From an archaeon (GTDB lineage Archaea > Iainarchaeota > Iainarchaeia > Iainarchaeales > JAAZKV01), in NCBI GenBank assembly GCA_041653195.1, contig JBAZFU010000001.1:70545-134544 (forward strand): DNA of 64,000 bases. Direction: 5' to 3'. The position numbers and the translations under genes were made by a program. Positions 3,338-62,377 of the stretch are shown here, one piece after another. The notes beneath the pieces were generated by a model. The model saw only the letters and a list, made by a program, of their open reading frames with translations, did no database searches and was not told where the DNA came from. Every line of letters begins with the position of its first letter. The first letter of the stretch is position 1.

Positions 3338-3433
3338 TAAAAAAAGAAATGCTTAGAAAACAATTAAAAATCCAAAACACTGTTCAGACAATCAACGAAA
3401 AAATAATACTTCCAAAAATAGCTGACTCTGAAC

Positions 3434-3907
3434 TTACAATTTATTTTGCAATGGCATGCTTGGAAGCGTGCGAGACTGTTTCTGCTCAGCCATAACAACC
3501 ATTGTTTTCAAATCAATCACGCCATCAATAAGCCCCAATTGATTTATGAACTTTTCAGCACTTTCCAAATTCGGAACAATAATTTTCGCAATTAAATTAT
3601 ACTCGCCGAGAACCTGATAAAGCTCAAGCACAAAATCCATCGCGGCAAGTTTTCTTAGAACGTCTTTCTGTTTTGAAGTTTCAGTGCGCATCTGCACAAA
3701 AATCGGGTTCTCATAACCAAGTGCCTTATAATTTAAGTCCACAGAAATAGATTGAATCACTCTTTTTCGCTTCAATGATTCGACCCTTTTTTTTATTGCA
3801 ACATCAGTGAGTTTTGTTTCACGGGCAATCGCCGAAAAAGAAGCCCTGCCGTCCAACAGAAGTGCTTTGAGAATAATATTATCTATTTTGTCAAGTGACG
3901 CTGCCAA
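3434..3907 (-). CDS. Lrp/AsnC family transcriptional regulator
   Basis: 157 aa; N-terminal HTH (ILKALLLDGRASFSAIARETKLTDVAIKKRVESL) followed by RAM-like domain. Confidence 0.8.
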   Translation of the reverse strand: MAASLDKIDNIILKALLLDGRASFSAIARETKLTDVAIKKRVESLKRKRVIQSISVDLNYKALGYENPIFVQMRTETSKQKDVLRKLAAMDFVLELYQVLGEYNLIAKIIVPNLESAEKFINQLGLIDGVIDLKTMVVMAEQKQSRTLPSMPLQNKL

Positions 3908-24737: not shown

Positions 24738-25772
24738 ATGCGAATAATAAAAATAGACCAGAAAAACGGCGAAATAAGGGTTATTCCACAAACCATGGAT
24801 GACCTCTGGCACTTGGAAAAAATAATTGAGAAAGGCGACATCGCAATTGGAAAAACCGACAGAAAAATAAAACCTAAAAACGAGGGCGAAAAAGCGGAGA
24901 GAAAAACAATCTTCGTCGAAATACTTATCGAAGAGGTTCGATTCCAAGAATTCAGCGAAAACTTAAAAATAAACGGAATAATAATTGCAGGAAAACCGGA
25001 AGAACTAATAGAACTAAAAAGTTACCAAAGCCTCGACATAAAACCCGGGGACTTCGTAACTATAAGAAAAAAATCTCTAAAAAAATGGCACATTGAAAGA
25101 CTTTTTAGCGCGGAAAGGGCGAGTGCTGAAGCAACCCTTCTTGTTGCACTAATGGACGATGAAGAATGCGAACTCGCATTCGTAAACCAGTTTTCACTAA
25201 ACATAAAAGCGAAAATACTTTCAAAAAAACAGGGAAAAATGTTCAAAGAAGAAAAAAGCCCCTACTTCGAAGAAGTACTCGCCAAAATAATCGACCTAAA
25301 ACCAAAAAAAATTTTGATCGCGGGACCGGGCTTCACCAGAGACAATTTTAGAAAGTTCATCGAAAACAAAAAAATAAAAAATGCCCCGAAAATATTTGTG
25401 GAAAGCACAAACTCCATAGGCGAACCGGGTTTCAGAGAACTGCTCGCAAGCGGAAAAATAGCTGCACTTGAAAAAGAACTGCAAATTGCAATCGAAACAA
25501 AACTGATCGAAGAATTTCTTGAAAAAATTTCAAAAGGGCTTGCGGAATATGGGCCGGAAAAAGTGCAGGAAATGCTAAAAATTGGCGCTGCCGAAAAAAT
25601 GCTTATCAGTGAAAAATATTTACTGGAAAATAGAAAAAAATGCGAAAATTTGATGGACGCTGCGGAAAAAAATGGAAGCGAAATTCATATAATATCCTCA
25701 AAAAATCCGAATGAAAAGCAAATACACGGATTCGGAGGAATCGTTGTCACCCTCAGATACAAAATGGAATAG
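24738..25772 (+). CDS. pelA: Pelota/Dom34 mRNA surveillance protein
   Basis: 344 aa; MRIIKIDQKNGEIRVIPQTMDDLWHLEKII N-terminus typical of archaeal Pelota; eRF1-like domains 2/3. Confidence 0.85.
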   Translation: MRIIKIDQKNGEIRVIPQTMDDLWHLEKIIEKGDIAIGKTDRKIKPKNEGEKAERKTIFVEILIEEVRFQEFSENLKINGIIIAGKPEELIELKSYQSLDIKPGDFVTIRKKSLKKWHIERLFSAERASAEATLLVALMDDEECELAFVNQFSLNIKAKILSKKQGKMFKEEKSPYFEEVLAKIIDLKPKKILIAGPGFTRDNFRKFIENKKIKNAPKIFVESTNSIGEPGFRELLASGKIAALEKELQIAIETKLIEEFLEKISKGLAEYGPEKVQEMLKIGAAEKMLISEKYLLENRKKCENLMDAAEKNGSEIHIISSKNPNEKQIHGFGGIVVTLRYKME

Positions 25773-30977: not shown

Positions 30978-32342
30978 ATGAAACCGCTATACGAAAAAAT
31001 ACTCAAAAAAATTACTCCTGCAAAAAAGGAACTCGAAAAAGAAAAGCTACTTGTAGAAAAAATAAGAAAAAAAATTGAAAATATTGATGGAAAACATTCT
31101 CACGTCGAATGGTGCGGAAGCAGCGCGCGCGGAACACACCTTCTCGGAGACAGGGATATTGATCTATTCGTGATGTTTGACCAAAAAATTTCAGATGCCG
31201 AACTTGAAAAAGAAGGACTGCGAATTGGAAAAGCGGTTTTCAGGGGAAAAAAATGGAAAAAGGCTTATTCCCAGCATCCGTACATACGCGGAGTGTTTGA
31301 AGGATTTGATGTAGAAGTAGTTCCAAGCTATATTGTCGAGCACGGCCATTTGAAAAAAAGCGCGGTGGACAGGACTCCTTTCCACAACAGGTATTTGCTC
31401 AAAAGATTAAATGAAAAAAATCAGAAAGAAGTGAGATTGCTAAAACAATTCATGAAAGGAATTGGCGCGTACGGCGCGGACCTAAAAAACAATGCTTTGC
31501 CAGGATATGGAATCGAACTGCTCGTAATAACTTACGGGGCATTTGAAAATGCGCTAAAACAAATTTCGAACTGGCAACCGGGAAAAATAATTTCATTCGG
31601 CGCGGACGAAAAAATCGCGAAAGAAAATTTCAAAGGAGCGCCGCTAATAATAGTAGACCCTGTGGATGAAAACAGAAATGTCGCATCTGCGCTTTCACTC
31701 GAACAATTTAATAGAATGATTCTTGCCGCAAAACTTTTCCTAAAAAAACCTTCAGAAAAATTCTTTTTCAGCGCGAAAACGAAAAAATGGGCAAAAGGAA
31801 AAATTGCAAAAATGCTCAAAAAAACTGAACTAATCGCGGTTAAAGGAAAATTTCCGACCACGATCCTTCCGGATCTTGTCTGGGGGCAATTGGCACGCTT
31901 CGAAAAAAAAATTTCAACACATTTTAAGGAAAACGATTTTTCAATTATGAGAAGCACACACTGGAGCGACGAAAAAAACGTTTTCTTTATTTTTGAACTT
32001 GAATCGCTTAGGCTTCAAAAAGCCAAAAAAATAATTGGCCCTTTCGCAAGCGACGCGGAAAATTCAAAAAAGTTTTTGGAAAAGAAAAGAAAAATACTTT
32101 CAGGGCCGCGCATTGAAAAGGGGCGGCTTGTGCTTGAAATCGAGCGGAGCGAAAACGAAATTCATGCTAAAAAAATTCTTGAAAAGTTTTTGAAAAAAAG
32201 CAAGTGCGAGGAAAAATCAGGAATAAGGATTTGCATTAAAAGCGCAAAAGTTTTGGCGGAAAAGGATTTGCTCCGCGAATACAAAGGAAAATTCGCAGAA
32301 TATTTGACGACTTATTTGAGCGGAAAAGAAGTTTTTGAATAA
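30978..32342 (+). CDS. cca: archaeal class I CCA-adding tRNA nucleotidyltransferase
   Basis: 454 aa; GSSARGTHLLGDRDIDLFVMF nucleotidyltransferase motif. Confidence 0.85.
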   Translation: MKPLYEKILKKITPAKKELEKEKLLVEKIRKKIENIDGKHSHVEWCGSSARGTHLLGDRDIDLFVMFDQKISDAELEKEGLRIGKAVFRGKKWKKAYSQHPYIRGVFEGFDVEVVPSYIVEHGHLKKSAVDRTPFHNRYLLKRLNEKNQKEVRLLKQFMKGIGAYGADLKNNALPGYGIELLVITYGAFENALKQISNWQPGKIISFGADEKIAKENFKGAPLIIVDPVDENRNVASALSLEQFNRMILAAKLFLKKPSEKFFFSAKTKKWAKGKIAKMLKKTELIAVKGKFPTTILPDLVWGQLARFEKKISTHFKENDFSIMRSTHWSDEKNVFFIFELESLRLQKAKKIIGPFASDAENSKKFLEKKRKILSGPRIEKGRLVLEIERSENEIHAKKILEKFLKKSKCEEKSGIRICIKSAKVLAEKDLLREYKGKFAEYLTTYLSGKEVFE

Positions 32343-32378
32343 AATTCATCTTGTTTGCCAAATAAAAAAAGCAGCTAA

Positions 32379-32672
32379 TTATGATAAGGTGCCAACAACA
32401 AAGAGTATAATTGCGAGAACAAATATGATTCCAATCACTATAAAGAAATACACGGATTTTTCGTATCCTGTTTGCTTTGCTTTTTCGATAATATTGCATA
32501 AAAATATTGCATAAATCACTCCTATAATTATAAGGAAAAAAACTGTATAACCCAAAACCCCAAGCCAAACCTGTCCATCTGAATTAATTGGCAGATAACG
32601 AACAGCAAGTGAACCACAAAAACCGGCTACTGAAAAAAGTGCAGCCAATGCAATAGAAGTGCTATCAACCAT
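32379..32672 (-). CDS. small membrane protein
   Basis: 97 aa; three hydrophobic helices. Confidence 0.4.
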   Translation of the reverse strand: MVDSTSIALAALFSVAGFCGSLAVRYLPINSDGQVWLGVLGYTVFFLIIIGVIYAIFLCNIIEKAKQTGYEKSVYFFIVIGIIFVLAIILFVVGTLS

Positions 32673-32789
32673 GAATTAATAACTTCTTTTCTGTTTATAT
32701 ATTTTGGTTATTAGGTTCCTATCTAAATAACAGTTGATTTTATGCTGTAAAAAACATAGATTTTTAACAAGTTTAAATGGCTTATTTTT

Positions 32790-33059
32790 ATGGAATTACT
32801 AAAAATTAGTTTTATTGTTTTACTGATTTTTGTGCTTTTTTCTCTTTTTGGTTGCACAGCATTAAATCAATTAAACCCAAACCTTGAGAAAAAAGAAACT
32901 GATATTCCTACAACAAGCATTAAAAACATAGGAAAGACGTTGGGTTCAGATATTTCTGACGCTGAAGCGGTTATGAGTTGCATTGATATTTGCAAACCTA
33001 ACGCAGTAGACAGCGCCGACTATTCGGGTAAAACAATTGCCTGTTGGTGCGAGAAATAG
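32790..33059 (+). CDS. small secreted Cys-containing lipoprotein-like protein
   Basis: 89 aa; signal peptide ending in lipobox-like LFGC followed by TALNQLNPN; paralogous leader to gene 35489. Confidence 0.5.
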   Translation: MELLKISFIVLLIFVLFSLFGCTALNQLNPNLEKKETDIPTTSIKNIGKTLGSDISDAEAVMSCIDICKPNAVDSADYSGKTIACWCEK

Positions 33060-33171
33060 CTTTTTCAACCATCTTTTGACAAAAAATGATAAGTCAATAA
33101 AATCAACCACAAGTGCCAAAATCTGCAAGAAGCCCCAAACAACCGATTATATGCCAAAGCCCATTATCAAA

Positions 33172-33200
33172 CGGGCTCTGGGGGAATCGAACCCCCTGCT
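33172..33200 (-). pseudogene. orphan tRNA 3'-fragment (T-arm + acceptor 3' strand) immediately downstream of tRNA-Ala
   Basis: Minus strand reads GGGGGTTCGATTCCCCCAGAGCCCG (T-stem/loop/stem + 7-nt acceptor strand + discriminator); no matching 5' half nearby. Confidence 0.4.
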
Positions 33201-33209
33201 ATTTTTTAA

Positions 33210-33282
33210 TGGACCGTGGGGGATTCGCACCCCCGACCACGCCGTTGCGAACGGCGGATCATAACTGCTAGACCAACGGCCC
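33210..33282 (-). tRNA. tRNA-Ala (anticodon CGC)
   Basis: Manual fold: acceptor GGGCCGT/ACGGTCC with G3:U70; anticodon stem CGCCG/CGGCG, loop TTCGCAA; T-arm GGGGG-TGCGAAT-CCCCC; 73 nt. Confidence 0.8.
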
Positions 33283-34410
33283 TGGCAATATCTTACCTGT
33301 TTCGCAGAACTCTTTATATTTGTTTAGAATTCTTGGGTTGCTACTGCCAATTAGTTCAAACCACTTGTGTGTGTTTTCTATGCCTCTAACACTTACACTT
33401 TCCGCATGAACAAATGCCTTAATTCCCTGTTTCAAAAGTATTTCTTTTATTTGATTTCGCAAAACTGGGCTGTAAGAACAAATTGTCACATAAGGATACC
33501 TGAATCGCTCATCCTTTCTTGCATTCATGTGACCATCTGTATCAAGCAAACCTCTAATCACAAAATTCAAGTTCTCAGTTTTAAGGCTTAAAAAATTATT
33601 CGAGATTCCGAAATCTTTTGGCTTTCCATTTGTATGATAACCATTGCTTAAAAGCCATTCATAAAATAGCCTACTGCTGAATTGAAGACGCACTGAATTA
33701 TCTTTACGAAAAAATATTGCCGGCTTAATTGGGAAATACTTTCTAATTATCGCATCAAGATACTTAACGTATTCTACGTCTTTTTTTGCGTTCCCAACAA
33801 TTGCCCCGTGATAAACATATTGCCCAGAGCTTTTTGAAAAATATTTCCCACAATGGCCATCGCCCAGCATTGCCCCAAATAATTCACACAATTCTGGATT
33901 TGCAATATCGGGAAAACCGTCATAAGTTTCCCAAGTTATTTTCTTCTTACAAGACCTAACTTTTTTTAGGTGCTTTCTAAACCCGCTTTCCCCCAAACAC
34001 TTTTTCATAGTTCTTATTGAATTTGTTCCGCCTTTTTTGGCGCCCCAATTATTTGGCAAAAAATTTATCTGTTTTAAAAATTCAAATTTTTGTTCAGTAG
34101 GCAAATAATTCAATAACCCGAAGAAAACTCTCGAAGGAAAAGTTATTTCGCCTCGCCTTATTCTCTTGAGACCTGTATTTCCAATGTTGAATTCTTTAAG
34201 CCATTCATTCCAAGAAACATACTTCTGAGAAGCTTTCGCAAGAGCAAATAACTTTCTCGGATTTGGAATTCGGACTCTCCGGTCGCTTTTATCCTCTTCC
34301 ATTTCAGATTTTTGTTTTTCTTCGTTTTTAACCGCATCGGAGCTTTCATGCCAGTCATTCATCAAAATCACCCTCCGAAAAGTTTTCCAAAATCCAGAGT
34401 TCCCTTCCAT
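33268..34410 (-). CDS. HTH + double-motif LAGLIDADG homing-endonuclease-like protein (paralog 1)
   Basis: 380 aa; LAGLIDADG motifs FGAMLGDGH and GLLDTDGHM; N-terminal HTH-like region; stop codon lies 15 nt inside tRNA-Ala 5' end. Confidence 0.65.
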   Translation of the reverse strand: MEGNSGFWKTFRRVILMNDWHESSDAVKNEEKQKSEMEEDKSDRRVRIPNPRKLFALAKASQKYVSWNEWLKEFNIGNTGLKRIRRGEITFPSRVFFGLLNYLPTEQKFEFLKQINFLPNNWGAKKGGTNSIRTMKKCLGESGFRKHLKKVRSCKKKITWETYDGFPDIANPELCELFGAMLGDGHCGKYFSKSSGQYVYHGAIVGNAKKDVEYVKYLDAIIRKYFPIKPAIFFRKDNSVRLQFSSRLFYEWLLSNGYHTNGKPKDFGISNNFLSLKTENLNFVIRGLLDTDGHMNARKDERFRYPYVTICSYSPVLRNQIKEILLKQGIKAFVHAESVSVRGIENTHKWFELIGSSNPRILNKYKEFCETGKILPGPLV

Positions 34411-34549
34411 CGAGTTCTACTGAATTTTCAGCCAGTTCTTTGACTGACTGAAATTCTTCCCGAGTGGGAAATTCAAATTCAAAATTCATACAAAAATCGC
34501 CTCCGTTAAAATTTTTTTTCTGGAGACTTTTGGAAGGCTTTTGAGGCAT
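34355..34549 (-). CDS. small acidic hypothetical protein (uncertain)
   Basis: 64-aa ORF overlapping start of the LAGLIDADG gene in another frame; could be spurious. Confidence 0.2.
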   Translation of the reverse strand: MPQKPSKSLQKKNFNGGDFCMNFEFEFPTREEFQSVKELAENSVELDGRELWILENFSEGDFDE

Positions 34550-34683
34550 TAAACCCTTTAGCCGAAGGCGACCCGCTCAAAAGCGGGTAAAGGTTTAAGC
34601 CGAAAAAGCCGAAGTCGAAAGAAAAAAATTAGGAGGCGATTTCAACGAGAATTTTGAACTCAAAAATTAGAAAAGTGGTGTGG

Positions 34684-35190
34684 TCAAAACTCCGCCTCAT
34701 CAATTTCAACATCGATAAGCTTTTCATTGTCATCGCCGAAAACAAATTTGCCCACAATCTTTTTCCCGCACAAAATCATTGGCAACCAGTGCTTATCGTC
34801 CTGCCACATTTTATCAAAAGGAATATTTTTCACATGCGTCCAAACGGGTTTCATTTCCTCGCTTTCCTTCGGCTCACCTTCCCAATCGCGCACCAAAAAA
34901 ACATGCACGACCTGATCCCAATGCCACTTTTTATCTTCTGGAATTGACGGAAAAATAAATGTCAGTTCGCCCATCCGTTCAATTGATTCAGGGTAAGTGT
35001 TCACGCCGGATTCTTCCCACAACTCGCGGATAATGGCTTCCTCAATCGTTTCACCAGGTTCGACCTTTCCGCCGAAACCGTTCAATTTTCCGCTCCCGAA
35101 GCCGCGCTTCTTCATTCCGAGAAGAACGAATTCCACCGGATCCTCTTTCACAAGAAAACAGAGAGTCGCCTGCTTCAATTTTTTTTCCAT
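34684..35190 (-). CDS. NUDIX hydrolase (MutT-like)
   Basis: 168 aa; Nudix box GGKVEPGETIEEAIIRELWEESGV. Confidence 0.7.
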   Translation of the reverse strand: MEKKLKQATLCFLVKEDPVEFVLLGMKKRGFGSGKLNGFGGKVEPGETIEEAIIRELWEESGVNTYPESIERMGELTFIFPSIPEDKKWHWDQVVHVFLVRDWEGEPKESEEMKPVWTHVKNIPFDKMWQDDKHWLPMILCGKKIVGKFVFGDDNEKLIDVEIDEAEF

Positions 35191-35236
35191 ACTAATTTCA
35201 CAAGAAATACTGAAAACAAGCCTTTTTTAGATTTTG

Positions 35237-35267
35237 GTTTTCGCCGGCCTTTTGGAAAAAGGCCGAA
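35237..35267 (-). repeat. hairpin + GGCGAAAAC repeat unit (tRNA-trailer/intron module family)
   Basis: Minus strand: TTCGGCCTTTTTCCAAAAGGCCGGCGAAAAC directly after the tRNA 3'-exon fragment. Confidence 0.6.
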
Positions 35268-35301
35268 TGCAGCCGCCGGGATTTGAACCCGGGTCATAGC
35301 C
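35268..35301 (-). pseudogene. tRNA 3' exon remnant (positions 39-73; acceptor strand CGGCTGC) preceded by intron-like sequence ending AATTAG
   Basis: Minus: GGCTA-TGAC-CCGGG-TTCAAAT-CCCGG-CGGCTGC-A; upstream is an intron-like module as in the tRNA-Gly introns; no 5' exon within about 200 nt. Confidence 0.4.
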
Positions 35302-35310
35302 TAATTCCAT

Positions 35311-35389
35311 TTTTCGCTAATTTTCGCCAACCTTTTCGAAAAAGGTTGTTCGCCGGCCTTTTTTTTAAAAAGGCCGAATGCGACCGCTG
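35311..35389 (-). repeat. two tandem hairpin-repeat units plus tRNA-Gly(GCC) 3'-end-like 13-mer
   Basis: Minus: CAGCGGTCGCATTCGGCCTTTTTAAAAAAAAGGCCGGCGAAC + AACCTTTTTCGAAAAGGTTGGCGAAAAT; mirrors tRNA-Gly(GCC) 3' end + trailer at 58856-58897. Confidence 0.55.
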
Positions 35390-35488
35390 TACAGCTACCA
35401 AAAAAGTTGTATCGCCCTCCACCTTTGTTAGACTTTTAACCTAACTTAAATGCTACAAAAGTAGCATGTAAAGAGATATAAAAATATA

Positions 35489-36091
35489 ATGCGCCATCAG
35501 AATCGTATGAAAAACAAAGTATTGCTAACAACCTTATTTTTGCTAGTGATTACTCTTTTAGGTTGCACAGAATTAAATCAACTTAACCAAAACACAGAAA
35601 GTGACAATAATAATACTGTTGAAATAAATTTGTTCGAAAAATATGAATCCAACAACCCATTCAAAGTGGATCAAGAATATTTATCTTATTGCGAGTCGCT
35701 TTCGACACCAGATAAACAATACGCTTGTAAAACCAATTCTGCCAAAGGCCCGCAATATTGTGAATTTACCAATGCCCAAAAAGAAAAAGAGAATTGTATT
35801 CTAAGTTCAATCAAAAATAGCAACTTTGTGCTTTTAGGAGACGAAAGATACACCAATTTTCACTATTATTGGTACTTAAAGTACCTTGAAGATGTTGAAG
35901 ATGTGCAGTCAAAACAGAAATTTTATCAAGAGTTTATGATTTGCGACTACATTGATAATAATGGCCAAAAAGACACCTGTTTAACTTGGCTTTTTAATAA
36001 AAATCAGGCTTTTGTTCCTTATGATGATGACCCAAACTTTATTGAAGCAAGACAGGTCTTTGTGGAAAATTATATAAAAAAAAATAATTGA
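35489..36091 (+). CDS. secreted Cys-containing lipoprotein-like protein
   Basis: 200 aa; signal peptide LLVITLLGCTELNQLNQN near-identical to gene 32790 leader; 8 Cys in mature part. Confidence 0.55.
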   Translation: MRHQNRMKNKVLLTTLFLLVITLLGCTELNQLNQNTESDNNNTVEINLFEKYESNNPFKVDQEYLSYCESLSTPDKQYACKTNSAKGPQYCEFTNAQKEKENCILSSIKNSNFVLLGDERYTNFHYYWYLKYLEDVEDVQSKQKFYQEFMICDYIDNNGQKDTCLTWLFNKNQAFVPYDDDPNFIEARQVFVENYIKKNN

Positions 36092-36222
36092 TAATAACTA
36101 AAAATAACACTTAACTGAAATGAACATAAAAAATTTTTAATATGAAAAGAATATGGTTTCAAGGACATTTAGAATACAAAAAACCAATGAACGGAAAAAA
36201 AAACAGTTAAAGAGGCGATTCT

Positions 36223-36384
36223 ATGTTTTCAAATAAAAATGCAGGCATAACCTATATTGTTCTAGCATTTGTCCTTTTGAGTTTGCTTTTTTTGAACATC
36301 ATAAATGTTGATAGCATGACTGTGCTTGGAACAACTATGACTATCATTGGAATTGGAATTATGTTCTTGCTGCAAAAAAAGTAG
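36223..36384 (+). CDS. small two-helix membrane protein (53 aa)
   Basis: Not in ORF track; AAAGAGGCG RBS 6 nt upstream of ATG 36223; MFSNKNAGITYIVLAFVLLSLLFLNII... Confidence 0.35.
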   Translation: MFSNKNAGITYIVLAFVLLSLLFLNIINVDSMTVLGTTMTIIGIGIMFLLQKK

Positions 36385-36405
36385 GGCAATACAACATTTT
36401 TCGTC

Positions 36406-36418
36406 AATGCGACCGCTG
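36406..36418 (+). repeat. 13-bp direct repeat AATGCGACCGCTG (second copy; first at 35377-35389)
   Basis: Exact 13/13 match to 35377-35389; reverse complement resembles tRNA-Gly(GCC) 3' end + trailer (CGGCGGTCGCATT). Confidence 0.5.
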
Positions 36419-36546
36419 GGACTCTTTTACTTTTGGTTGCTGGTTTGTGGCTGGTTGTTTTTAGTGGAATGTATTCACACAGGTTCTACTTGGCTTACCT
36501 TGCCTTTCATTCAAATCAGCCCCTGATAAAACACAATTCTTGTGTT

Positions 36547-37329
36547 CTAAAAATCACGTATTTTTAATAATTCATCAACTTTTTTGAACCATTTAATATC
36601 TTCACTACTTAGTTTCATTTTTTTTGAGTCTTTTTTTAACCTATTAAGCATTTTATGAATATCTTCCTGAAAAGCAGATCTATCTTTTTCAGGATAGAAT
36701 TTGGCATACCTTATGCGCATTTCTACAGAATAAACAAATTTAAGCACTCCTGACCAATATGTGACCAAAGGTCTATCGCCATCCATGCTAATATCCATAG
36801 AACCTTTTCGCAGAGGAAGCTTAGTTCTTTCAATAATCCATTTATTCGCTTGAGCCAAAAGAAGCAAATCATAATCTAAATCAATCAAAGAATACAAATG
36901 AAGCTCTTTATCATTTTTTAAAGGAAAAAGAAAAATTCGCCACTTATCTTCCTCCGAATCTTTAAATACTCCATAACTGAAAGAATGAGTAAGTTTTCTG
37001 ATTATTTTCTTTTCATTTTTATCATACGCAACGAATGCGTTTAATCCAAGATATGGGTTAATATATCCAAGGAACCCCGAATTTTCTCCAATAATCATTT
37101 GGGTATTAATTAATACCGATACCACATCTTCTGCTATTTTTTGAACTTGTTCTTTGGCAGACTCTTTTGAATATAACACATTTAACGAAACATTAATCCA
37201 TTCAAAATTTAGGTCCGGGGCAACAATTTTTATGGCTTCTTCATTTTTTTCTAATTTTGGGTCATCCAAATTATTTGTTTTTTTGAAAAAATCAAATGCG
37301 CCCATTAAATCAACTCCTTTTTGTGCCAT
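36547..37329 (-). CDS. hypothetical protein
   Basis: 260-aa ORF; no recognisable motif; lies between the LAGLIDADG paralog/tRNA-Gly and the repeat cassette. Confidence 0.45.
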   Translation of the reverse strand: MAQKGVDLMGAFDFFKKTNNLDDPKLEKNEEAIKIVAPDLNFEWINVSLNVLYSKESAKEQVQKIAEDVVSVLINTQMIIGENSGFLGYINPYLGLNAFVAYDKNEKKIIRKLTHSFSYGVFKDSEEDKWRIFLFPLKNDKELHLYSLIDLDYDLLLLAQANKWIIERTKLPLRKGSMDISMDGDRPLVTYWSGVLKFVYSVEMRIRYAKFYPEKDRSAFQEDIHKMLNRLKKDSKKMKLSSEDIKWFKKVDELLKIRDF

Positions 37330-38374
37330 TATGCGGCTTACGGGAATTGAACCCGTTCATCCACCTTGGGAAGGTGGAATCATACCAGTAGACCAAAGCC
37401 GCTTTGAATGGTTCTTCAACTTGCAAGCCAGTTATTTCACTCCAAATACATTCCTTTAATGGAATTTCCCCCGTTTCAATGAAATACTTGTAGCGCATAA
37501 TATTTTTAGGGTTTGCACAACCCACCAACGTTAAGAACCGATGCACTTCCTCTTGCCTTTGAATTCTCACATTAACATCACTTTTTGAAGGAGCGAATCC
37601 AATTTGCCAGAGCATTTGATAAAGATTTGACCTTATTTGAGGAGAATCAGTTTGAAATTCTATTATTAATCTTTTATACTTTTTCTGTTTTTGATAAATT
37701 CCCCCATCTGTGTCCAAAAGCCCTCTCAACGCACCATAAATATATACGTCTTTTTCAAAAATCCATCGTGGAAGAGATACCTTATTTTTTATTTTATCTC
37801 CCAAAACAAGCGAGTTTTTGAGCAAAAATTTTACTAACTCTGTTGAGTTTACTTTCAATTGCATCGCGTTTGAATTTTTTAACCGAAATATCTTAGAGCT
37901 CAAACCAAAAAGCTGCTTAATCATATTTTGCAAATATTTGTAATGTTCAATTTCATAAAAATTGCCAGTTATTGTAAGTGTTTTCGAATCAATATGCCCA
38001 TCGCCCAGAATTACTCCGAAAAGCTCCGCTAATTTTTCACTTTTCTCAGGCACTTTAATATTCTTTTTATTTTTACCGCCACCCAATTCCTGCCCCCAGT
38101 TTTTGGCAAGGGTTTTTTCCACCCACTTTTTTCTAATCACAACCCAACTTTCAAAAGGGTGTTTTGCTAAAAGCCTTTTTGCATAGCTCAGCGGAATCGT
38201 AGTGCGTTCTTTTCTCCAATCTATTCTAATAGTGTGTTCTGACAAATTCAACTCTTTTGCTAAAGCAATCCATGTCAAGCCGCTTTTTTTCTTAATCTGT
38301 TCAATAAACTTTCTTTGCAATCCTTTCTTGAACTTGACTCGTTCTTCCCTGATTAGTTCGCCAACTTTCCTCAT
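37310..38374 (-). CDS. HTH + double-motif LAGLIDADG homing-endonuclease-like protein (paralog 2)
   Basis: Start taken at Met61 (ATG 38374) of ORF 37310..38554; motifs FGVILGDGH and GLLDTDGGI; N-terminal region aligns with paralog 1; reading frame continues through the whole tRNA-Gly(CCC) before the stop. Confidence 0.6.
   Translation of the reverse strand: MRKVGELIREERVKFKKGLQRKFIEQIKKKSGLTWIALAKELNLSEHTIRIDWRKERTTIPLSYAKRLLAKHPFESWVVIRKKWVEKTLAKNWGQELGGGKNKKNIKVPEKSEKLAELFGVILGDGHIDSKTLTITGNFYEIEHYKYLQNMIKQLFGLSSKIFRLKNSNAMQLKVNSTELVKFLLKNSLVLGDKIKNKVSLPRWIFEKDVYIYGALRGLLDTDGGIYQKQKKYKRLIIEFQTDSPQIRSNLYQMLWQIGFAPSKSDVNVRIQRQEEVHRFLTLVGCANPKNIMRYKYFIETGEIPLKECIWSEITGLQVEEPFKAALVYWYDSTFPRWMNGFNSRKPHNGTKRS
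37332..37402 (-). tRNA. tRNA-Gly (anticodon CCC)
   Basis: Manual fold: acceptor GCGGCTT/AAGCCGC; anticodon stem CCACC/GGTGG, loop TTCCCAA; T-arm ACGGG-TTCAATT-CCCGT; 71 nt. Confidence 0.8.
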
Positions 38375-38470
38375 AAGAAAATATTTTTGTGCGAATTTTA
38401 TATTTGCTTCTGGACTGCCGTGCCGGTGACCGGCCAAATTTGTAAAATGATCACAAAAAGAGCAAATAAA

Positions 38471-38502
38471 GGAATTGAACCCTACCACTAGACTACGGCT
38501 GC
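38471..38502 (-). pseudogene. internally deleted tRNA-like fragment (acceptor 5' strand GCAGCCG + D-arm fused to T-arm-like GGGTTCAATTCC)
   Basis: Minus: GCAGCCGTAGTCTAGTGGTAGGGTTCAATTCC; 5' strand complementary to the acceptor 3' strand of fragment 35268-35301; T-arm identical to the tRNA-Gly(CCC) T-arm. Confidence 0.4.
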
Positions 38503-38514
38503 AAAATAAATTCC

Positions 38515-39225
38515 TTAAATTTTTTCCCAATAATATATCGAAACCCACAAGCAATACGGGGAAGGGGTAAACGCCCTCTCCGGCGGCTTAATCTCCCTAA
38601 AGCCATCCGGCACTTTTAGTGAGGGATTGCGTTCCTGCGTATTGAACAAAAATCTTCCGCCCTTTTTTAAAACTTTTGAAATTCCAGAAATCGCTTTCTT
38701 TTGGTCATAGGCATGCTCAACTCCAAGAGTGGAACAAACAAAATCAAGGGACTCCGGAGCAAAATACTTTGATATTTTTGACGCTTCCATAACCCGCCAC
38801 CTAATTTTGCCGCTGTTCTTCCAAGTTTTCCAAACTGGACTTCTTTTCAAGCCGGTAACTGAAAGATTTATTTTTCCGCCAATTTTTTCATACAAATCGT
38901 TTGCCAAACGCCCTGTTCCGCCACCAACCTCCAACACATTCAACCCGCCCCCGTTTTTTGCTGAAACTTTTTTTATTTCATGAAAAAGATCCACTCCAAA
39001 AAACATTTGCGAATCCCTTAAGGAAAGATTAAACGAACCGTTCCACCCCAACGTACTGTCCAATTGCCTTGCTTCCCTATGGCAGATTGCGAGCCTTTTC
39101 CTGACTTTCCAATCCTCAGTAATTGCGCCATATAACCCTTTGCCTGGAAATCTTCGCTTGGAATTCTCTTCGGCAACACGCGTCAATCTTGCCCTTTCAA
39201 TAGGGCTAATTTTTTTAACCACCAT
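38515..39225 (-). CDS. class I SAM-dependent methyltransferase
   Basis: 236 aa; motif I LNVLEVGGGTGRLANDL. Confidence 0.7.
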   Translation of the reverse strand: MVVKKISPIERARLTRVAEENSKRRFPGKGLYGAITEDWKVRKRLAICHREARQLDSTLGWNGSFNLSLRDSQMFFGVDLFHEIKKVSAKNGGGLNVLEVGGGTGRLANDLYEKIGGKINLSVTGLKRSPVWKTWKNSGKIRWRVMEASKISKYFAPESLDFVCSTLGVEHAYDQKKAISGISKVLKKGGRFLFNTQERNPSLKVPDGFREIKPPERAFTPSPYCLWVSIYYWEKI

Positions 39226-39238
39226 AAAACCACCAAAG

Positions 39239-39310
39239 CGGGCCCGGAGGGAATCGAACCCCCATCTCGAGATCCGAAGTCTCGCCGGTTATCCATTGCC
39301 ACACGGGCCC
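39239..39310 (-). tRNA. tRNA-Arg (anticodon UCG)
   Basis: Manual fold: acceptor GGGCCCG/CGGGCCC; anticodon stem CGAGA/TCTCG, loop CTTCGGA; T-arm GGGGG-TTCGATT-CCCTC; 72 nt; D-stem weak. Confidence 0.7.
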
Positions 39311-39460
39311 TTGAAATAATTATTTAACGCAATCATTTAATAATTCTGGCAAAAGACAGGTTTCAGATGCCGACTGGCCGAACAGCCGGCGAGAAGGCTT
39401 ATTAAAGCTTTCTTCCAAGAAAATCATTAAAGTTTTTTGAAAACTTTATTGGTGAGCAAA

Positions 39461-39616
39461 ATGAAAAAATGCGGAACATGCAGCAAAACTGTAACAAGCG
39501 AATACATAGAATTCAAATGCCCAAGTTGCGGCAAAAGCAACGTCATAAGGTGCGGGCACTGCAAAGAAACGGCAAAAACATACACCTGCGGCGAATGCGG
39601 ATTCACAGGCCCTTAA
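39461..39616 (+). CDS. Zn-ribbon protein (4 CxxC pairs), typical neighbour of aEF-1beta
   Basis: Not in ORF track (51 aa): MKKCGTCSKTVTSEYIEFKCPSCGKSNVIRCGHCKETAKTYTCGECGFTGP. Confidence 0.55.
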   Translation: MKKCGTCSKTVTSEYIEFKCPSCGKSNVIRCGHCKETAKTYTCGECGFTGP

Positions 39617-39647
39617 ACAAAAACTTGCTTTTTAGCGGTGAATAAAA

Positions 39648-39905
39648 ATGGGAAACGCATTAGTCATATTCAAAATATTTACCGATCCTGAAAACATGGA
39701 CTCTGTTGAGCAGGAACTCAGAAAAATTACTGCGGGCGCATTCAAAGACTTGAAAAGAGAACCTGTAGGATTCGGAATCGAAGTAATAAGGGTAGGGTAC
39801 ATGGTCCCGGATAAAGTGGACGGAGTAATGGAAAAACTTGAAACTGCTGTTAGGGCCGTCAAGGGAATAAACGAAGTTGAAGTGGACGGCGTAACCCTTC
39901 TATAA
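39648..39905 (+). CDS. ef1b: translation elongation factor aEF-1 beta
   Basis: 85 aa; archaeal EF-1beta length and pattern (…EPVGFGIEVIRVGYMVPDKVDGV…INEVEVDGVTLL). Confidence 0.8.
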   Translation: MGNALVIFKIFTDPENMDSVEQELRKITAGAFKDLKREPVGFGIEVIRVGYMVPDKVDGVMEKLETAVRAVKGINEVEVDGVTLL

Positions 39906-39982
39906 ACCAATCACTATAAGTGCTTCGAGCGGCACAACCCTGAGATAGCTTTTTTATTGCTTTTTAACCCCAATTCTTCCGA

Positions 39983-42022
39983 ATGATAAAATCAATAACA
40001 CTTGAAAACTGGCGCACGCACAAAAAAAGCGAATTCGAATTCGAAAAAGGAACCAATGTTATAGTCGGAATAATGGGCTCTGGAAAGAGCTCGGTTATAA
40101 ACGCGATGAGTTACGCGCTTTTCGGAACTTTTCCGGCATTGCAAAGCAAACAGGTGAGCCTCGGCGAAATAATAATGGCGCGACCGAACAAATGCGAAAC
40201 CGCAAAAATAAGCCTCTGTTTCGAATATGGGGGAAAAGAATACAAAATAGAACGAGAAATTTCCGAAACGAAAACGAATTACGCGAAACTGTTTGAAGGC
40301 GGAAAACTAATTGCGGGCCCGAAACAAAAAGATGCTAACGAAGGAATCGAAAAAATACTCGGAATAGATTATGAATTGTTTAGCAGAGCGATTTATGCCG
40401 AACAAAACGAAATCGACTTTTTCCTCAAATTGAGCCCGCGGGACAGAAAACAAAAATTCGACGACCTGCTCGGAATAGAAAAATACGAGACTGCGAGAAA
40501 AAACGCGGTTTCTTTGCAAAACCAGCTCTCAAAATCCGGAAAAGAAATGAACGAATTCCTAAAAGAACAGAAAAAAACGGTTTCGCCAAAAGAAGAGGCG
40601 GAACTCGTAAAAAAAATCGCTGAGGAGAAAAAAGCGGCGGAGGAATTTGAAAAAAAAATGGCTGAAACGAAAAAAGAAGCGGCAGAAATTGAAAAAAAAG
40701 TTGCGGAGGAAGAAGAAAAAGAAAAAGAACACAAACTATATTCAGACCTCCTGATAAAAACGAACTCGAAACTAGAAACGCTCAAAGAACAAATAGAGAA
40801 AAGCAAAATCATTTCTCTGAAAGAAATCGAGAGAAAATCAGAGAACGCGGGAAAGGAACTTAAGGAAAAAGAAAGCAAATTGAAAAGATGCGAAAAAGAA
40901 ATAGAAAAAACAGAAAAAGAATACAAAAAATGCGCGGAAGAAACGAAAGTACTTGAATACAAAAAAGAAAAACTCGAAAAAGAATTAAAAGAAATAGGAA
41001 CACTCGAAGGAAAATGCCCCACATGCAAAAGAGAGTTAACGCAGGAGTGCAAAAAAGGCCTCGAAAAAGAAATAAAAGAAAAATTAACCGAAACTGTTGC
41101 GGAAGAAAGAAAAATTGAAAAACTGGCGGAAGAAGCGAATGCGAAACTCGAAAAAGAAAAAAAATTGAGGAGGGCTTGCGAGGATGAAATAAAAAAAATG
41201 CAAAGGGAATGCTACGAACTTGAGGCAAAGCAAAAAAATGCGAAAGAAGCCGAAGAAAAAATAAAACAATTCGAGGCGCTCAAAAAAGAGCCTGAAAACT
41301 TGGAAAAGGAAATAAAAAAAATCGGATTTGAAAAACAAAAATTGGAAAAACTTCGGAAAGAATTGTTTGAAAAAAAATCAGACGCGAATGTTATTGGGGA
41401 AAAAATATCATCAAAAAAAGAGTTAACGGCGAATTACAAGAGTGAATTAAAAAAAATAGCCGAAACGAAAAAACTATTCGAGGAAACCGAAAAACGAATA
41501 CAAAAAACAGAGAAAGCCGCGGAAACACTTGGAGTGTTCGGCAACTGCCTCATCGCGACACAGAACGAATTGAGGGAATCGCTAATAGAAACAATAAACG
41601 ACGCGACCTCAAGCATCTGGCAAAAAATATACCCTTACGAGGATTACGTCGATGCAAAACTTTCTGTTGAGGAAAACGGCTACGAGTTAAGAGTGCTTAC
41701 GCGGAACGGCGAATGGGTGAGAGTAGAAGGAATACTTTCTGGCGGAGAAAGAAGCGCTGCCGCAATATGCATAAGGATAGCGTTCGCGCTCGTACTCACA
41801 AAAAAACTTTCAATGCTGATACTGGATGAGCCGACCCACAACCTCGACACTAACGCGGTTGAAAAACTCGGGAAAATGCTTCGCGACGATTTGCCGAAAA
41901 TAATCGAACAAATATTTGTGATAACTCACGACAAACAGCTGGAGAACGCGGCATCCGGAAAAATTTATCTGCTCAAAAGAAATAAAGCGGCTGACGAAGC
42001 GACGAGAATAGAAAAAATTTGA
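39983..42022 (+). CDS. rad50: Rad50 DNA double-strand-break repair ATPase
   Basis: 679 aa; N-terminal Walker A GIMGSGKSS; long K/E-rich coiled coil with zinc-hook CPTC; C-terminal signature LSGGERSAAAI and D-loop LILDEPTHNLD. Confidence 0.85.
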   Translation: MIKSITLENWRTHKKSEFEFEKGTNVIVGIMGSGKSSVINAMSYALFGTFPALQSKQVSLGEIIMARPNKCETAKISLCFEYGGKEYKIEREISETKTNYAKLFEGGKLIAGPKQKDANEGIEKILGIDYELFSRAIYAEQNEIDFFLKLSPRDRKQKFDDLLGIEKYETARKNAVSLQNQLSKSGKEMNEFLKEQKKTVSPKEEAELVKKIAEEKKAAEEFEKKMAETKKEAAEIEKKVAEEEEKEKEHKLYSDLLIKTNSKLETLKEQIEKSKIISLKEIERKSENAGKELKEKESKLKRCEKEIEKTEKEYKKCAEETKVLEYKKEKLEKELKEIGTLEGKCPTCKRELTQECKKGLEKEIKEKLTETVAEERKIEKLAEEANAKLEKEKKLRRACEDEIKKMQRECYELEAKQKNAKEAEEKIKQFEALKKEPENLEKEIKKIGFEKQKLEKLRKELFEKKSDANVIGEKISSKKELTANYKSELKKIAETKKLFEETEKRIQKTEKAAETLGVFGNCLIATQNELRESLIETINDATSSIWQKIYPYEDYVDAKLSVEENGYELRVLTRNGEWVRVEGILSGGERSAAAICIRIAFALVLTKKLSMLILDEPTHNLDTNAVEKLGKMLRDDLPKIIEQIFVITHDKQLENAASGKIYLLKRNKAADEATRIEKI

Positions 42023-44055: not shown

Positions 44056-44110
44056 GAAAACTGCTGTATTTTCTTTTGTTTAAAAGCGCTTTGAGGGTTC
44101 CATGCCGGTC

Positions 44111-44176
44111 AGCCTTCGGCCTTTTAAAAAAGGCCGGCGAAAAGGCTTCGCACCCCTAAAAGACTGGCGAAAAATT
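44111..44176 (+). repeat. free-standing copy of the hairpin + GGCGAAAAGGCTTCGCA module (intron-like repeat family)
   Basis: CGGCCTTTTAAAAAAGGCCGGCGAAAAGGCTTCGCACCCCTAAAAGACTGGCGAAAAA; near-identical to the first half of the tRNA-Gly(GCC) intron. Confidence 0.6.
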
Positions 44177-47680: not shown

Positions 47681-47710
47681 TTTTCGCCAGCCTTTTAGAA
47701 AAAGGCTGAA
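47681..47710 (-). repeat. hairpin + GGCGAAAAC unit immediately 3' of tRNA-Ala(GGC)
   Basis: Minus: TTCAGCCTTTTTCTAAAAGGCTGGCGAAAAC. Confidence 0.55.
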
Positions 47711-58692: not shown

Positions 58693-58863
58693 CGCGACCG
58701 TAGTCTAACGGTTATGATTCAACCTTGCCAACAGCCTTTTAAAAAAGGCTGGCGAAAAGGCTTCGCAACGGCTTTTTGAGAAAAGACCGGCGAAAAAACG
58801 CAAACAAAAAATCAATAAAAAAGCAATTAGGTTGAGGACCGGGTCCAATTCCCGGCGGTCGCA
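58693..58863 (+). tRNA. tRNA-Gly (anticodon GCC) with 99-nt intron at 37/38
   Basis: 5' exon GCGACCG-TA-GTCT…CAACC-TTGCCA; 3' exon A-GGTTG-AGGA-CCGGG-TCCAATT-CCCGG-CGGTCGC-A; intron about 58731-58829 carries two hairpin-repeat units. Confidence 0.7.
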
Positions 58864-58897
58864 TTCGACCTTTCAGGAAAAGGCCGGCGAAAAAAGG
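58864..58897 (+). repeat. hairpin + GGCGAAAAAAGG unit in the tRNA-Gly(GCC) trailer
   Basis: TTCGACCTTTCAGGAAAAGGCCGGCGAAAAAAGG. Confidence 0.5.
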
Positions 58898-62215: not shown

Positions 62216-62377
62216 GCGTCCGTGATGTAACGGTAGCATGAAAGCCTTCCACGGCCTTTTTCAAAGGCCGGCGAAAAGCACTGTCTTCGCTTTTGGCTCG
62301 ACAGAGCGTGCTTCGCAGGTTTTGTAAAAAAAAACTGGAGTTAGCTTTCCGTCGGGGTTCAAATCCCCGCGGGCGCA
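62216..62377 (+). tRNA. tRNA-Gly (anticodon UCC) with about 91-nt intron at 37/38
   Basis: 5' exon GCGTCCG-TG-ATGT…AAAGC-CTTCCA; 3' exon A-GCTTT-CCGT-CGGGG-TTCAAAT-CCCCG-CGGGCGC-A; intron about 62252-62342 starts with the hairpin-repeat module CGGCCTTTTTCAAAGGCCGGCGAAAAGC. Confidence 0.7.

Follow-up and report, generated by a model that had tools for sequence, protein, structure and literature searches.

Why should two nuclease genes of one archaeon each run directly into a tRNA gene? In a stretch of 64,000 nucleotides (nt) from an archaeon of the Iainarchaeales (contig JBAZFU010000001.1, positions 70,545 to 134,544; hereafter the window), two open reading frames (ORFs) on the minus strand, HEG1 (ORF1) and HEG2 (ORF2), overlap the genes for tRNA-Ala(CGC) and tRNA-Gly(CCC), respectively (Table 1). 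An earlier reading of the window made without database searches (the sequence-only reading) had described them as paralogous double-LAGLIDADG genes welded upstream of tRNA genes, and had proposed a selfish element tied to tRNA or, alternatively, a domesticated nuclease. Our analysis bears out the observation in every detail and refines the picture: the elements lie inside a tRNA gene and bring a whole or partial replacement for it. The gene-tRNA pairs are probably a homing-endonuclease element that invades a tRNA gene and supplies the substitute, as the fold of the protein, the recurrence of the arrangement, empty sites, degraded copies and remains of the native gene all support.

The proteins encoded by both genes exceed the gathering cut-off of Pfam LAGLIDADG_3 (22.5 bits; 25.2 bits for ORF1 and 33.9 bits for ORF2) and align with each other over 212 amino acids (aa) at 28% identity (E 2e-22); they are paralogous. 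LGDGH and LLDTDG occur in both, and in family alignments of 15 and 40 sequences motif 1, GDG (G124-D125-G126), and motif 2, DTDG (D221-x-D223-G224), are invariant, which bears out the first part of the earlier description. The AlphaFold2 (AF2) model is confident (predicted local distance difference test, pLDDT, 91.8) and has the double-domain alpha-beta-beta-alpha-beta-beta-alpha fold. Its best solved match in Foldseek is I-Tsp061I, an archaeal rRNA-intron enzyme (E 1.3e-10; template-modelling score, TM, 0.75, target-normalised); intein endonucleases, I-DmoI and, at lower rank, WhiA are further matches, and a profile search of PDB sequences is concordant (2dch at 1.4e-11). The N-terminal ~100 residues form a helical domain that is confident in the model. 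The sequence-only reading had called this region a helix-turn-helix (HTH); the helical domain stands, and sequence similarity to an HTH is weak (Pfam HTH_23, E 0.05; XRE-type PDB chains, E 0.02-0.1). Pfam detected no intein domains in the two window ORFs, and its WhiA models stayed under the cut-off; NCBIfam returned only intein-containing equivalogs far under theirs, and PHROGs only weak generic endonuclease matches. Both proteins are LAGLIDADG enzymes of the two-domain kind, in which the active site is intact and a further domain has been added at the N-terminus; they are predicted to cleave DNA. As to gene limits, the deposited HEG1 protein begins 16 codons further in; the mechanical frame of ORF2 spans 37310-38554 (-) and its homologues support the ATG at 38374 as the start, giving 354 aa.

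ARAGORN and Rfam confirm that each nuclease gene overlaps a tRNA gene on its own strand. ORF1 ends with ...cca ggg ccg ttg gtc TAG, in which TAG is nt 13-15 of tRNA-Ala, an overlap of 15 nt. The first 15 nt of the inner tRNA-Gly(CCC) likewise encode a conserved protein C-terminus, KAALV. Homologues of ORF2 (328 aa) stop at nt 13-15 of the tRNA with TAA or TAG in the D-loop, but these nucleotides (37388-37390) are TAC in the window. Because this stop within the tRNA has been lost, the frame crosses the entire tRNA to 37310, 26 residues beyond the homologues: the homologous part of HEG2 ends at 37388, and 37310-37387 is a read-through of 26 codons, which accounts for the earlier remark that the frame continues through the whole tRNA-Gly before its stop. 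The same change gives the window tRNA a C15, where relatives have A or G, and an unusual C15/A48 combination (15-48), although its score remains 60 bits. Annotators should note that an ORF which, like ORF2, runs on across a tRNA is a real gene and has its normal stop in the D-loop.

This arrangement recurs across the family. We compared ~140 related loci (L numbers below). The genome scan for the nuclease was seeded with an alignment of the Gly subfamily, the 15-sequence alignment of all subfamilies being too diverse for seeding; the hosts of family members span DPANN archaea and bacteria of the Candidate Phyla Radiation (CPR). A same-strand tRNA starts within +/-20 nt of the stop in 32 of 56 free-standing family members, as compared with 2 of 1101 other ORFs (>=150 aa, same loci), which excludes chance; from -100 to +150 nt of the stop, the counts are 45/56 and 23/1101. 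The nuclease stop usually falls within the conserved tRNA nucleotides U8-A9-G10 or U13-A14-R15 (offsets -10/-11 or -15/-16), and with a stop codon inside the tRNA the nuclease gene is not cleanly deletable without damage to the tRNA. The adjacency counts are lower bounds, since six members scored as lacking a tRNA (L029, L035, L036, L038, L052 and L055) have a minus-strand tRNA call exactly at the nuclease stop, and these calls are probably mis-oriented plus-strand tRNAs.

Each nuclease subfamily is linked to one isoacceptor. All 17 scorable loci of the Gly subfamily, leaving out the heavily degraded L031, carry tRNA-Gly(CCC), and the ORF2 homologues whose context was looked up all precede this tRNA regardless of the neighbouring genes. 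Three homologues of ORF1 precede tRNA-Ala(CGC), members from CPR bacteria carry Ser(GGA), and more distant members adjoin Ser(GGA), Gln(UUG), Val(UAC), Leu, Arg and other tRNAs. With introns allowed, ARAGORN labels intron-containing tRNA-Gly(CCC) as Phe(AAA) (L010 5976-6060, L090 1185-1275, L039 3990-4076); the mislabel is certain for L010 and L090 from their ..CTTCCCA.. anticodon loop, and for L010, called Phe(AAA) with an intron, the Gly(CCC) anticodon was read from the sequence. Archaeal hosts belong to the Woese-, Pace-, Nano-, Micr-, Nanohalo- and Aenigmatarchaeota, and CPR hosts include Kaiserbacteria, Saccharibacteria and Nealsonbacteria. Homologues of ORF2 are uniformly 328 aa long, with 46-73% identity over ~57 protein clusters. 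The family is probably under-represented in protein databases built from gene calls of the Joint Genome Institute (JGI) type, given that the JGI calls of the window genome (sample 3300035208, L156 2677-3861 and 6837-8131) omit both nuclease genes and leave gaps exactly the size of the cassettes.

Several family members may reside in one genome: the window has two, and the metagenome-assembled genome (MAG) JAHIVR01 has L021 and L057. On the Gly-cassette contig L003, a second LAGLIDADG_3 gene (positions 1-397; 339 aa, minus strand, start near 188) is divergent from a tRNA called Pro(AGG). In L009, the Ala(CGC)-linked member is preceded, at a distance of 1.3 kb, by a reverse-transcriptase gene (RVT_1) with an adjoining Rfam RT-16 RNA (87 bits), at 2316-3694.

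What surrounds the cassettes of the Gly subfamily is the debris of the gene in which they sit. In this subfamily, a tRNA 5' fragment, consisting of the acceptor strand and D arm and ending at nt ~25, lies 40-130 nt before the nuclease ATG; next come an A-rich stretch and, 24-34 nt ahead of the ATG, a TTTATATA-type box. When such fragments were scored by local alignment against a tRNA panel, with 1420 control windows for comparison, 10 of 24 loci reached the top 2.5% of the controls; most of the fragments had escaped a strict regular expression for the D arm. Downstream, an orphan T arm with the 3' acceptor strand and A73 stands 11-29 nt past the inner tRNA in L013, L015, L018 and L021, with shorter versions in L020, L005, L039 and L026. 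Four orphan T arms occur within 30 nt downstream of cassettes, against two elsewhere in 243 kb.

The outer pieces fit each other. The 5' and 3' acceptor strands are GCAGCCA and TGGCTGC in L015, GCGCTAG and CTGGCGC in L018, and GCATCAG and CTGGTGC in L020 (7/7 pairs each), and GCGCTGG and CAGGCGC in L021 (6/7); in the same loci, the outer 5' strand makes 3-5/7 pairs with the 3' strand of the inner tRNA. Where the outer 3' piece is missing, it is the inner tRNA 3' strand that the outer 5' strand fits (L019 7/7, L003 6/7, L010 6/7). Over ten loci, pairing within the own locus sums to 64/70, compared with a cross-locus mean of 5.1/7, and 0 of 20000 permutations reach this sum. Two layouts are seen: type A, [native 1-25][promoter-nuclease-new 1-25][native 26-73], and type B, [native 1-25][promoter-nuclease-whole tRNA-short spacer][native 49-73]. 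The pairing and the junction at nt ~25 thus identify the litter of tRNA fragments in the sequence-only reading as remains of a native tRNA gene split by the cassette.

The Gly locus of the window is an untidy type B. The outer 5' fragment lies 3.2 kb upstream of the native 3' exon, whose acceptor strand, CGGCTGC, makes 7/7 pairs with it. Hairpin units that end in GGCGAAMA lie ahead of this exon, and a trailer hairpin lies behind it; the same units recur in the introns of the resident tRNA-Gly(GCC) (58694-58863; intron of 98 nt) and tRNA-Gly(TCC) (62216-62377; 91 nt), whereas the inner Gly(CCC) has neither intron nor trailer. Since the relic carries intron units of the resident type, the disrupted gene was a host-type, intron-bearing Gly tRNA and, by elimination, probably the CCC isoacceptor. 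Fused directly to the outer 5' fragment is a T-loop piece, GGGTTCAATTCC, which is identical to nt 49-60 of the inner tRNA-Gly(CCC) and not to the T arm of the native 3' exon; it may be the trace of an earlier invasion or of an end-joining event. The box AAATATAAAA is the putative promoter of the Gly cassette, and TTTATATA boxes hold the equivalent position in homologous loci. The tRNA fragments that had been noted in this region are real at 38479-38502, 35268-35302, 35379-35398 and 33172-33196. T-loop-like 11-mers at 24935, 27522 and 31509 were also considered as tRNA remnants and are treated as chance; the context was read for the first two, and 31509 lies inside the gene for the CCA-adding enzyme.

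The same genomic site is found both occupied and empty, as the sequence-only reading would predict for a selfish element. The gene next to the cassette, in divergent orientation, is that for methionyl-tRNA synthetase (MetRS) in L003, L005, L014, L016, L017, L020 and L021; in L022 and L023 MetRS lies downstream. Among the 80 closest MetRS loci, obtained in a metagenome scan with a MetRS alignment, a nuclease profile search (E<1e-5) found the nuclease in none. Five loci (L071, L075, L080, L111 and L090) have an intact tRNA-Gly(CCC) on the opposite strand, 52-87 nt from the MetRS start, and the outer 5' fragment of L003 lies 57 nt from MetRS, that is, at the position of the resident tRNA in empty loci. 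The native promoter string ATAAAAACCTAACT is kept in L021 and L014; its 13-nt core stands before the resident tRNA of the empty L071, and a close variant before that of L111. Resident tRNAs have a GCGC... acceptor and a CCGGGTTCRAWTCCCGG T arm, both of which are also present in the outer fragments of L018 and L021. In a tree of 50 nt, which is noisy, nine inner tRNAs form a cluster of their own and the outer fragments of L018 and L021 group with the residents; the inner acceptor GCGGCTT...AAGCCGC is common to the window, L016, L017 and L020.

Occupied loci are scattered on the MetRS neighbour-joining tree, and their nearest MetRS relatives are without a cassette. The correlation between nuclease and MetRS distances is weak (Mantel r 0.25, p 0.09), and the nearest nuclease relative is the nearest MetRS relative in 0 of 9 loci. 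Copies in decay are found as well: L024 has one frameshift and still adjoins tRNA-Gly(CCC), frameshifts leave the nuclease in two parts in L040 and in four pieces in L031, and L034, L047 and L064 are C-terminal stubs before Val or Ser tRNAs. We tried L016 and L075 as a clean pair of occupied and empty sites and rejected them: they are closest by MetRS, but extra genes (ITPase-like and DNA ligase-like ORFs, named from translation alone) set them apart, and a downstream relic is common to both.

We therefore propose the following course of events. The cassette, ~1.1 kb long, would comprise an archaeal TATA promoter, a free-standing two-domain LAGLIDADG gene, whose product has an extra N-terminal domain of DNA-binding type, and a tRNA that starts before the ORF ends. 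Its nuclease would cut the cassette-free allele of the cognate tRNA gene, and the cut is placed within nt ~25-48 because this segment is missing from the native gene in occupied loci. Repair from the occupied allele would then copy the cassette in. The cassette would have to bring its own tRNA because a tRNA gene cannot splice out 1 kb. In type A, a new 5' part (nt 1-25) would join the native 3' part; in type B, a whole tRNA would be brought, leaving the native T arm and acceptor strand downstream; in both, the native nt 1-25 would be left upstream as a dead stub. The tRNA might be expressed as the 3' end of the nuclease transcript by way of RNase P or from a TATA-like box in the last 40 nt of the ORF, for which AAATATAAAG and GAAATAA are candidate internal promoters in the window; if the two are co-transcribed, separation by RNase P would leave a stop-less message. 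Of the window cassettes, one would serve tRNA-Ala(CGC), and the other would have replaced an intron-containing native tRNA-Gly.

Several observations weigh against this proposal. Outer fragments are recognizable in only ~40% of loci, and alignment to the panel detected no outer 5' fragment in any locus of the Ala subfamily, ORF1 included. The fragment behind the window tRNA-Ala resembles the 3' end of tRNA-Arg(TCG) and comes from a tRNA other than Ala, as its discriminator is G and G3:U70 is absent; at the Gly locus, the native 3' exon is 3.2 kb distant, with unrelated genes between. Type B junctions cannot be produced by simple homologous gene conversion. The inner tRNA has the same anticodon loop as its presumed target, no consistent difference between inner and resident tRNAs (anticodon stem) that would explain immunity was found, and the inner tRNAs of L003, L010, L014 and L023 group with residents in the noisy tree of 50 nt. 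It should also be noted that the sequences show the architecture, the linkage, the remnants of the native gene, presence and absence at a syntenic site and products of decay, and that we infer that the nuclease cleaves, where it does so, how repair proceeds, that the inner tRNA is immune and how it is expressed. Finally, nucleases of different loci diverge to a similar order (44-63% identity) as MetRS (42-69%), and most copies are intact and uniformly of 328 aa, as would also be expected from long vertical inheritance under purifying selection. We found no clean recent pair of occupied and empty sites; other samples of the window genome keep the same arrangement, and exact-protein look-ups of the flanking methyltransferase and NUDIX genes gave this arrangement only, with no strain-level empty site.

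The last of these points would suit a frozen or domesticated gene, the serious alternative and one already raised by the sequence-only reading: an old LAGLIDADG insertion near or in a tRNA gene, inherited vertically and patchy through loss only, and kept either because its 3' end overlaps and promotes an essential tRNA or for a host function such as binding or regulation of tRNA genes in the manner of WhiA. Constant length, the spread of identities over the protein clusters, MetRS synteny that recurs with similar divergence of the two genes, and the failure to find either polymorphism between strains in other samples of the genome or any clean recent gain can all be read in this way, as can the XRE-like helical domain, the place of WhiA among the structural matches and the TATA-like boxes for the tRNA within the nuclease ORF. 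We nevertheless regard it as unlikely. Both catalytic Asp residues are invariant, unlike in WhiA, and loss alone fits poorly with 80 closest MetRS loci all devoid of the nuclease, several of them with the same tRNA neighbour, with nearest MetRS relatives of occupied loci that lack it, and with nearest neighbours of nuclease and MetRS that disagree in 9/9 loci. Native fragments retain lineage-specific complementary acceptor strands that old neutral relics should have lost; moreover, pseudogenised copies exist, and the family spans archaea and CPR bacteria. Domestication thus accounts less well for the patchy distribution and the retained active site.

The complementarity of the outer acceptor strands in several divergent loci, whose sequences differ, together with the intact T arms of outer 3' fragments, could also mean that the outer fragments and the inner tRNA make up a functional split or intron-containing tRNA gene, with the nuclease ORF in a giant bulge-helix-bulge-type intron like the LAGLIDADG genes of archaeal rRNA introns; the 91-98 nt tRNA introns of the window genome and the archaeal intron endonuclease as closest solved structure would agree. 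This is very unlikely, since the outer pieces comprise nt 1-25 and 49-73, and without the entire anticodon arm (nt 26-48) yield no decoding tRNA. A TATA box stands between the outer 5' piece and the ORF, and no intron RNA family matches within 32000-40000. Of the outer 3' pieces, those of L001 and L016 have decayed and those of L005 and L020 are cut short, and many loci have none; the architecture is also shared by CPR bacteria, in which the splicing endonuclease system of archaea is missing. Least credible of all, in our view, is that the fragments are att-site scars of integrase-type elements or unrelated rearrangements and the nucleases ordinary free-standing genes in tRNA-rich regions. Domain searches of the cassettes and neighbouring genes found no integrase or recombinase in or beside them. 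One gene supplies both fragments, its 5' part upstream and its 3' part downstream, instead of a 3' end repeated directly; dozens of loci have the stop within the tRNA and the same fixed junction at nt ~25; and the adjacency statistics exclude coincidence. Three points speak for this reading: integration at tRNA genes is classic, the two native tRNA-Gly pieces of the window have 3.2 kb of orphan genes between them, and the fragment after tRNA-Ala derives from another tRNA. As to a viral vector, a scan of viral contigs gave no evidence of one, the only matches being inteins in ORFs of 600-1450 aa outside the nuclease family.

Invasion of a tRNA gene by an endonuclease element with its replacement therefore remains our preferred interpretation. 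It is tempting to go further and to see in the cassettes a natural 'cleave-and-rescue' drive, in which the nuclease destroys the resident isoacceptor gene, is inherited together with a resistant replacement and has spread between DPANN and CPR, repeated invasions directly yielding the fragmented, intron-bearing and split tRNA genes of small archaeal genomes. This idea is speculative, and we hold it to be possible rather than probable; if true, it would bring a concrete, testable agent into the long debate on 'tRNA genes in pieces'. The usual view is that homing endonucleases persist mainly within introns and inteins, which make their insertion harmless. The cassettes would show another solution in cellular genomes, namely to invade a small essential RNA gene and carry a substitute. 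They would account for fragments of tRNA genes, and for the replacement of such genes, in the genomes of DPANN archaea and CPR bacteria, bear on the frequent interruption of archaeal tRNA genes, and mark horizontal exchange between these two groups of ultra-small organisms. They also define a widespread nuclease family, unannotated as such, whose targets are probably tRNA genes and which offers potentially useful meganuclease scaffolds. The sequence-only reading had not recognized the arrangement as a described system, and the full-text literature that we searched, with incomplete coverage, agrees: it held no description of nuclease-tRNA cassettes in DPANN or CPR and gave instead endonuclease-bearing group I introns of tRNA genes, phage SegB, fractured genes and mitochondrial mORFs; nor did such cassettes come up in a term search of one paper about Patescibacteria and their tRNA introns.

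Table 1. Features of the two nuclease-tRNA loci and associated sequences (window coordinates; nt numbers within tRNAs are tRNA positions)
Feature	Position	Strand	Basis or remark
HEG1 (ORF1), Ala-subfamily nuclease gene, 380 aa	33268-34410	-	ORF list, Pfam
tRNA-Ala(CGC), linked to HEG1	33210-33282	-	ARAGORN and Rfam, 51.6 bits
TATA-like AAATATAAAG within the HEG1 3' end, 30-39 nt before tRNA-Ala	33312-33321	-	conserved in L007, L009
Orphan tRNA 3' fragment (T arm GGGGGTTCGATTCCCCC, AGAGCCC and G), 13 nt past tRNA-Ala	33172-33196	-	
Small ORF of 44-64 aa that overlaps HEG1 from just upstream (..FEFEFPTREEF..GRELWILENF..)	34355-34549	-	
HEG2 (ORF2), Gly-subfamily nuclease gene, helical N-terminal domain and two LAGLIDADG domains	37310-38374	-	ORF list, Pfam, homologues
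Inner tRNA-Gly(CCC), intact, intron-less	37332-37402	-	ARAGORN and Rfam, 60 bits
TATA-like GAAATAA upstream of tRNA-Gly	37432-37439		candidate internal tRNA promoter
TATA-like box AAATATAAAA, 22-31 nt before the HEG2 ATG	38396-38405	-	sequence inspection
12-nt T-loop piece GGGTTCAATTCC, fused directly to the outer 5' fragment	38471-38482	-	
Outer 5' fragment of native tRNA-Gly: acceptor strand GCAGCCG and D arm (GCAGCCGTAGTCTAGTGGTAGGGT)	38479-38502	-	
Native tRNA-Gly 3' exon (nt 38-73), AGGCTATGACCCGGGTTCAAATCCCGGCGGCTGCA	35268-35302	-	
Intron-like hairpin units, each ending GGCGAAMA	35303-35398	-	
Second relic of a tRNA 3' end (..GCGGTCGCA), preceding the hairpin units	35379-35398	-	
DNA between cassette and native 3' exon, ~2 kb of orphan/unassigned ORFs	35489-37329	.	
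Orphan ORF, 260 aa, begins 3 nt past tRNA-Gly(CCC)	36547-37329	-	
Small membrane ORF	36223-36384	+	
Lipoprotein-like ORF	35489-36091	+	
Lipoprotein-like ORF	32790-33059	+	
Hairpin unit sites	58694-58863	+	
	62216-62377	+	
	47681-47710	-	
	58864-58893	+	
	44110-44175	+	
	35235-35378	-	

Some further features of the window deserve mention. The orphan ORF next to tRNA-Gly(CCC) has no match in Pfam, NCBIfam or PHROGs, and among 5.8 billion protein clusters it matches only itself. The two lipoprotein-like ORFs each have a signal peptide and a Cys, share a lipobox region of 44 nt that is 86% identical, and are both convergent, each just past one cassette or relic site. The small ORF that overlaps HEG1 has no Pfam match and resembles a small ORF upstream of the Leu(GAG)-linked L046 (~3720-3860, an Iainarchaeum MAG; 36% over 36 aa, pairwise E 2e-8); it is possibly an accessory gene of some cassettes. 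A hairpin unit specific to this genome, TTCGRCC-T-run...A-run-GGCCGGCGAAAA, makes up the introns of tRNA-Gly(GCC) and tRNA-Gly(TCC). It also trails tRNA-Gly(GCC), tRNA-Ala(GGC) and a relic tRNA, and two copies at 44110-44175 follow unidentified sequence; matches to GGYYGGCGAAMA number 12, compared with 3.4 expected. It is possibly a small mobile repeat of hairpin form, or else an element resembling a terminator that has spread into tRNA introns.

How do the cassettes compare with known systems? In sequence and fold they are closest to I-Tsp061I, I-DmoI, PI-PfuI and the Tli VMA intein, with which they share two LAGLIDADG domains per chain and the GDG/DxDG motifs. Intron and intein enzymes, however, sit in a self-removing element whose insertion is phenotypically silent, whereas the window nucleases are encoded by free-standing ORFs with a TATA box of their own and would be silent by virtue of the replacement gene; neither an intron RNA family nor intein domains accompany them. 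Phage T4 SegB and other free-standing phage enzymes practise 'intronless homing', in which a nuclease gene lies among tRNA genes, flanking markers are co-converted and the adjoining target allele is resistant. SegB is a GIY-YIG enzyme, phage-borne and active during co-infection, and it is without the ORF-tRNA overlap, the nested broken tRNA gene and the isoacceptor-specific subfamilies, all three of which the cassettes have. WhiA, a bacterial transcription factor derived from a LAGLIDADG enzyme, is similar in joining a two-LAGLIDADG scaffold to a helix-turn-helix-type domain, but its catalytic residues are gone, its HTH is C-terminal and it is found throughout its lineages; the cassette nucleases differ on all three counts.

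The boundary between D arm and anticodon stem has been reported as a split position of archaeal tRNAs, and the cassettes break the native gene at the same boundary. Like the split, tri-split and intron-containing tRNA genes of Nanoarchaeum and Caldivirga (e.g. PMC3293823), they leave tRNA genes in pieces in small genomes. Unlike in those genes, the cassette pieces are without the anticodon arm and flank a nuclease gene and an intact tRNA, and they look like by-products of invasion. The closest parallel in logic is with the endonuclease mORFs of fungal mitochondria, which carry a foreign gene end and displace the native one, as in atp6 of Allomyces macrogynus and atp6, atp9, cox2 and nad3 of Glomus (PMC3630166). 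In both systems a LAGLIDADG ORF (in mORFs also GIY-YIG) travels with a copy of part of the invaded gene, the carried copy takes over the function, the displaced native part is left nearby as a fragment, and ORF and gene are fused or overlapping; in mORFs, moreover, the native part resembles that of close relatives and the carried part does not (PMC3630166). The same contiguity is found in the cassettes, where the inner tRNA starts inside the ORF and the native nt 1-25 lie upstream. They differ from mORFs in that the host gene is a tRNA, that either its 5' part or the gene as a whole is carried, with the ORF upstream, in mirror image, that the hosts are DPANN archaea and CPR bacteria and not mitochondria, and that the nuclease has an extra N-terminal helical domain and keeps to one isoacceptor per subfamily.

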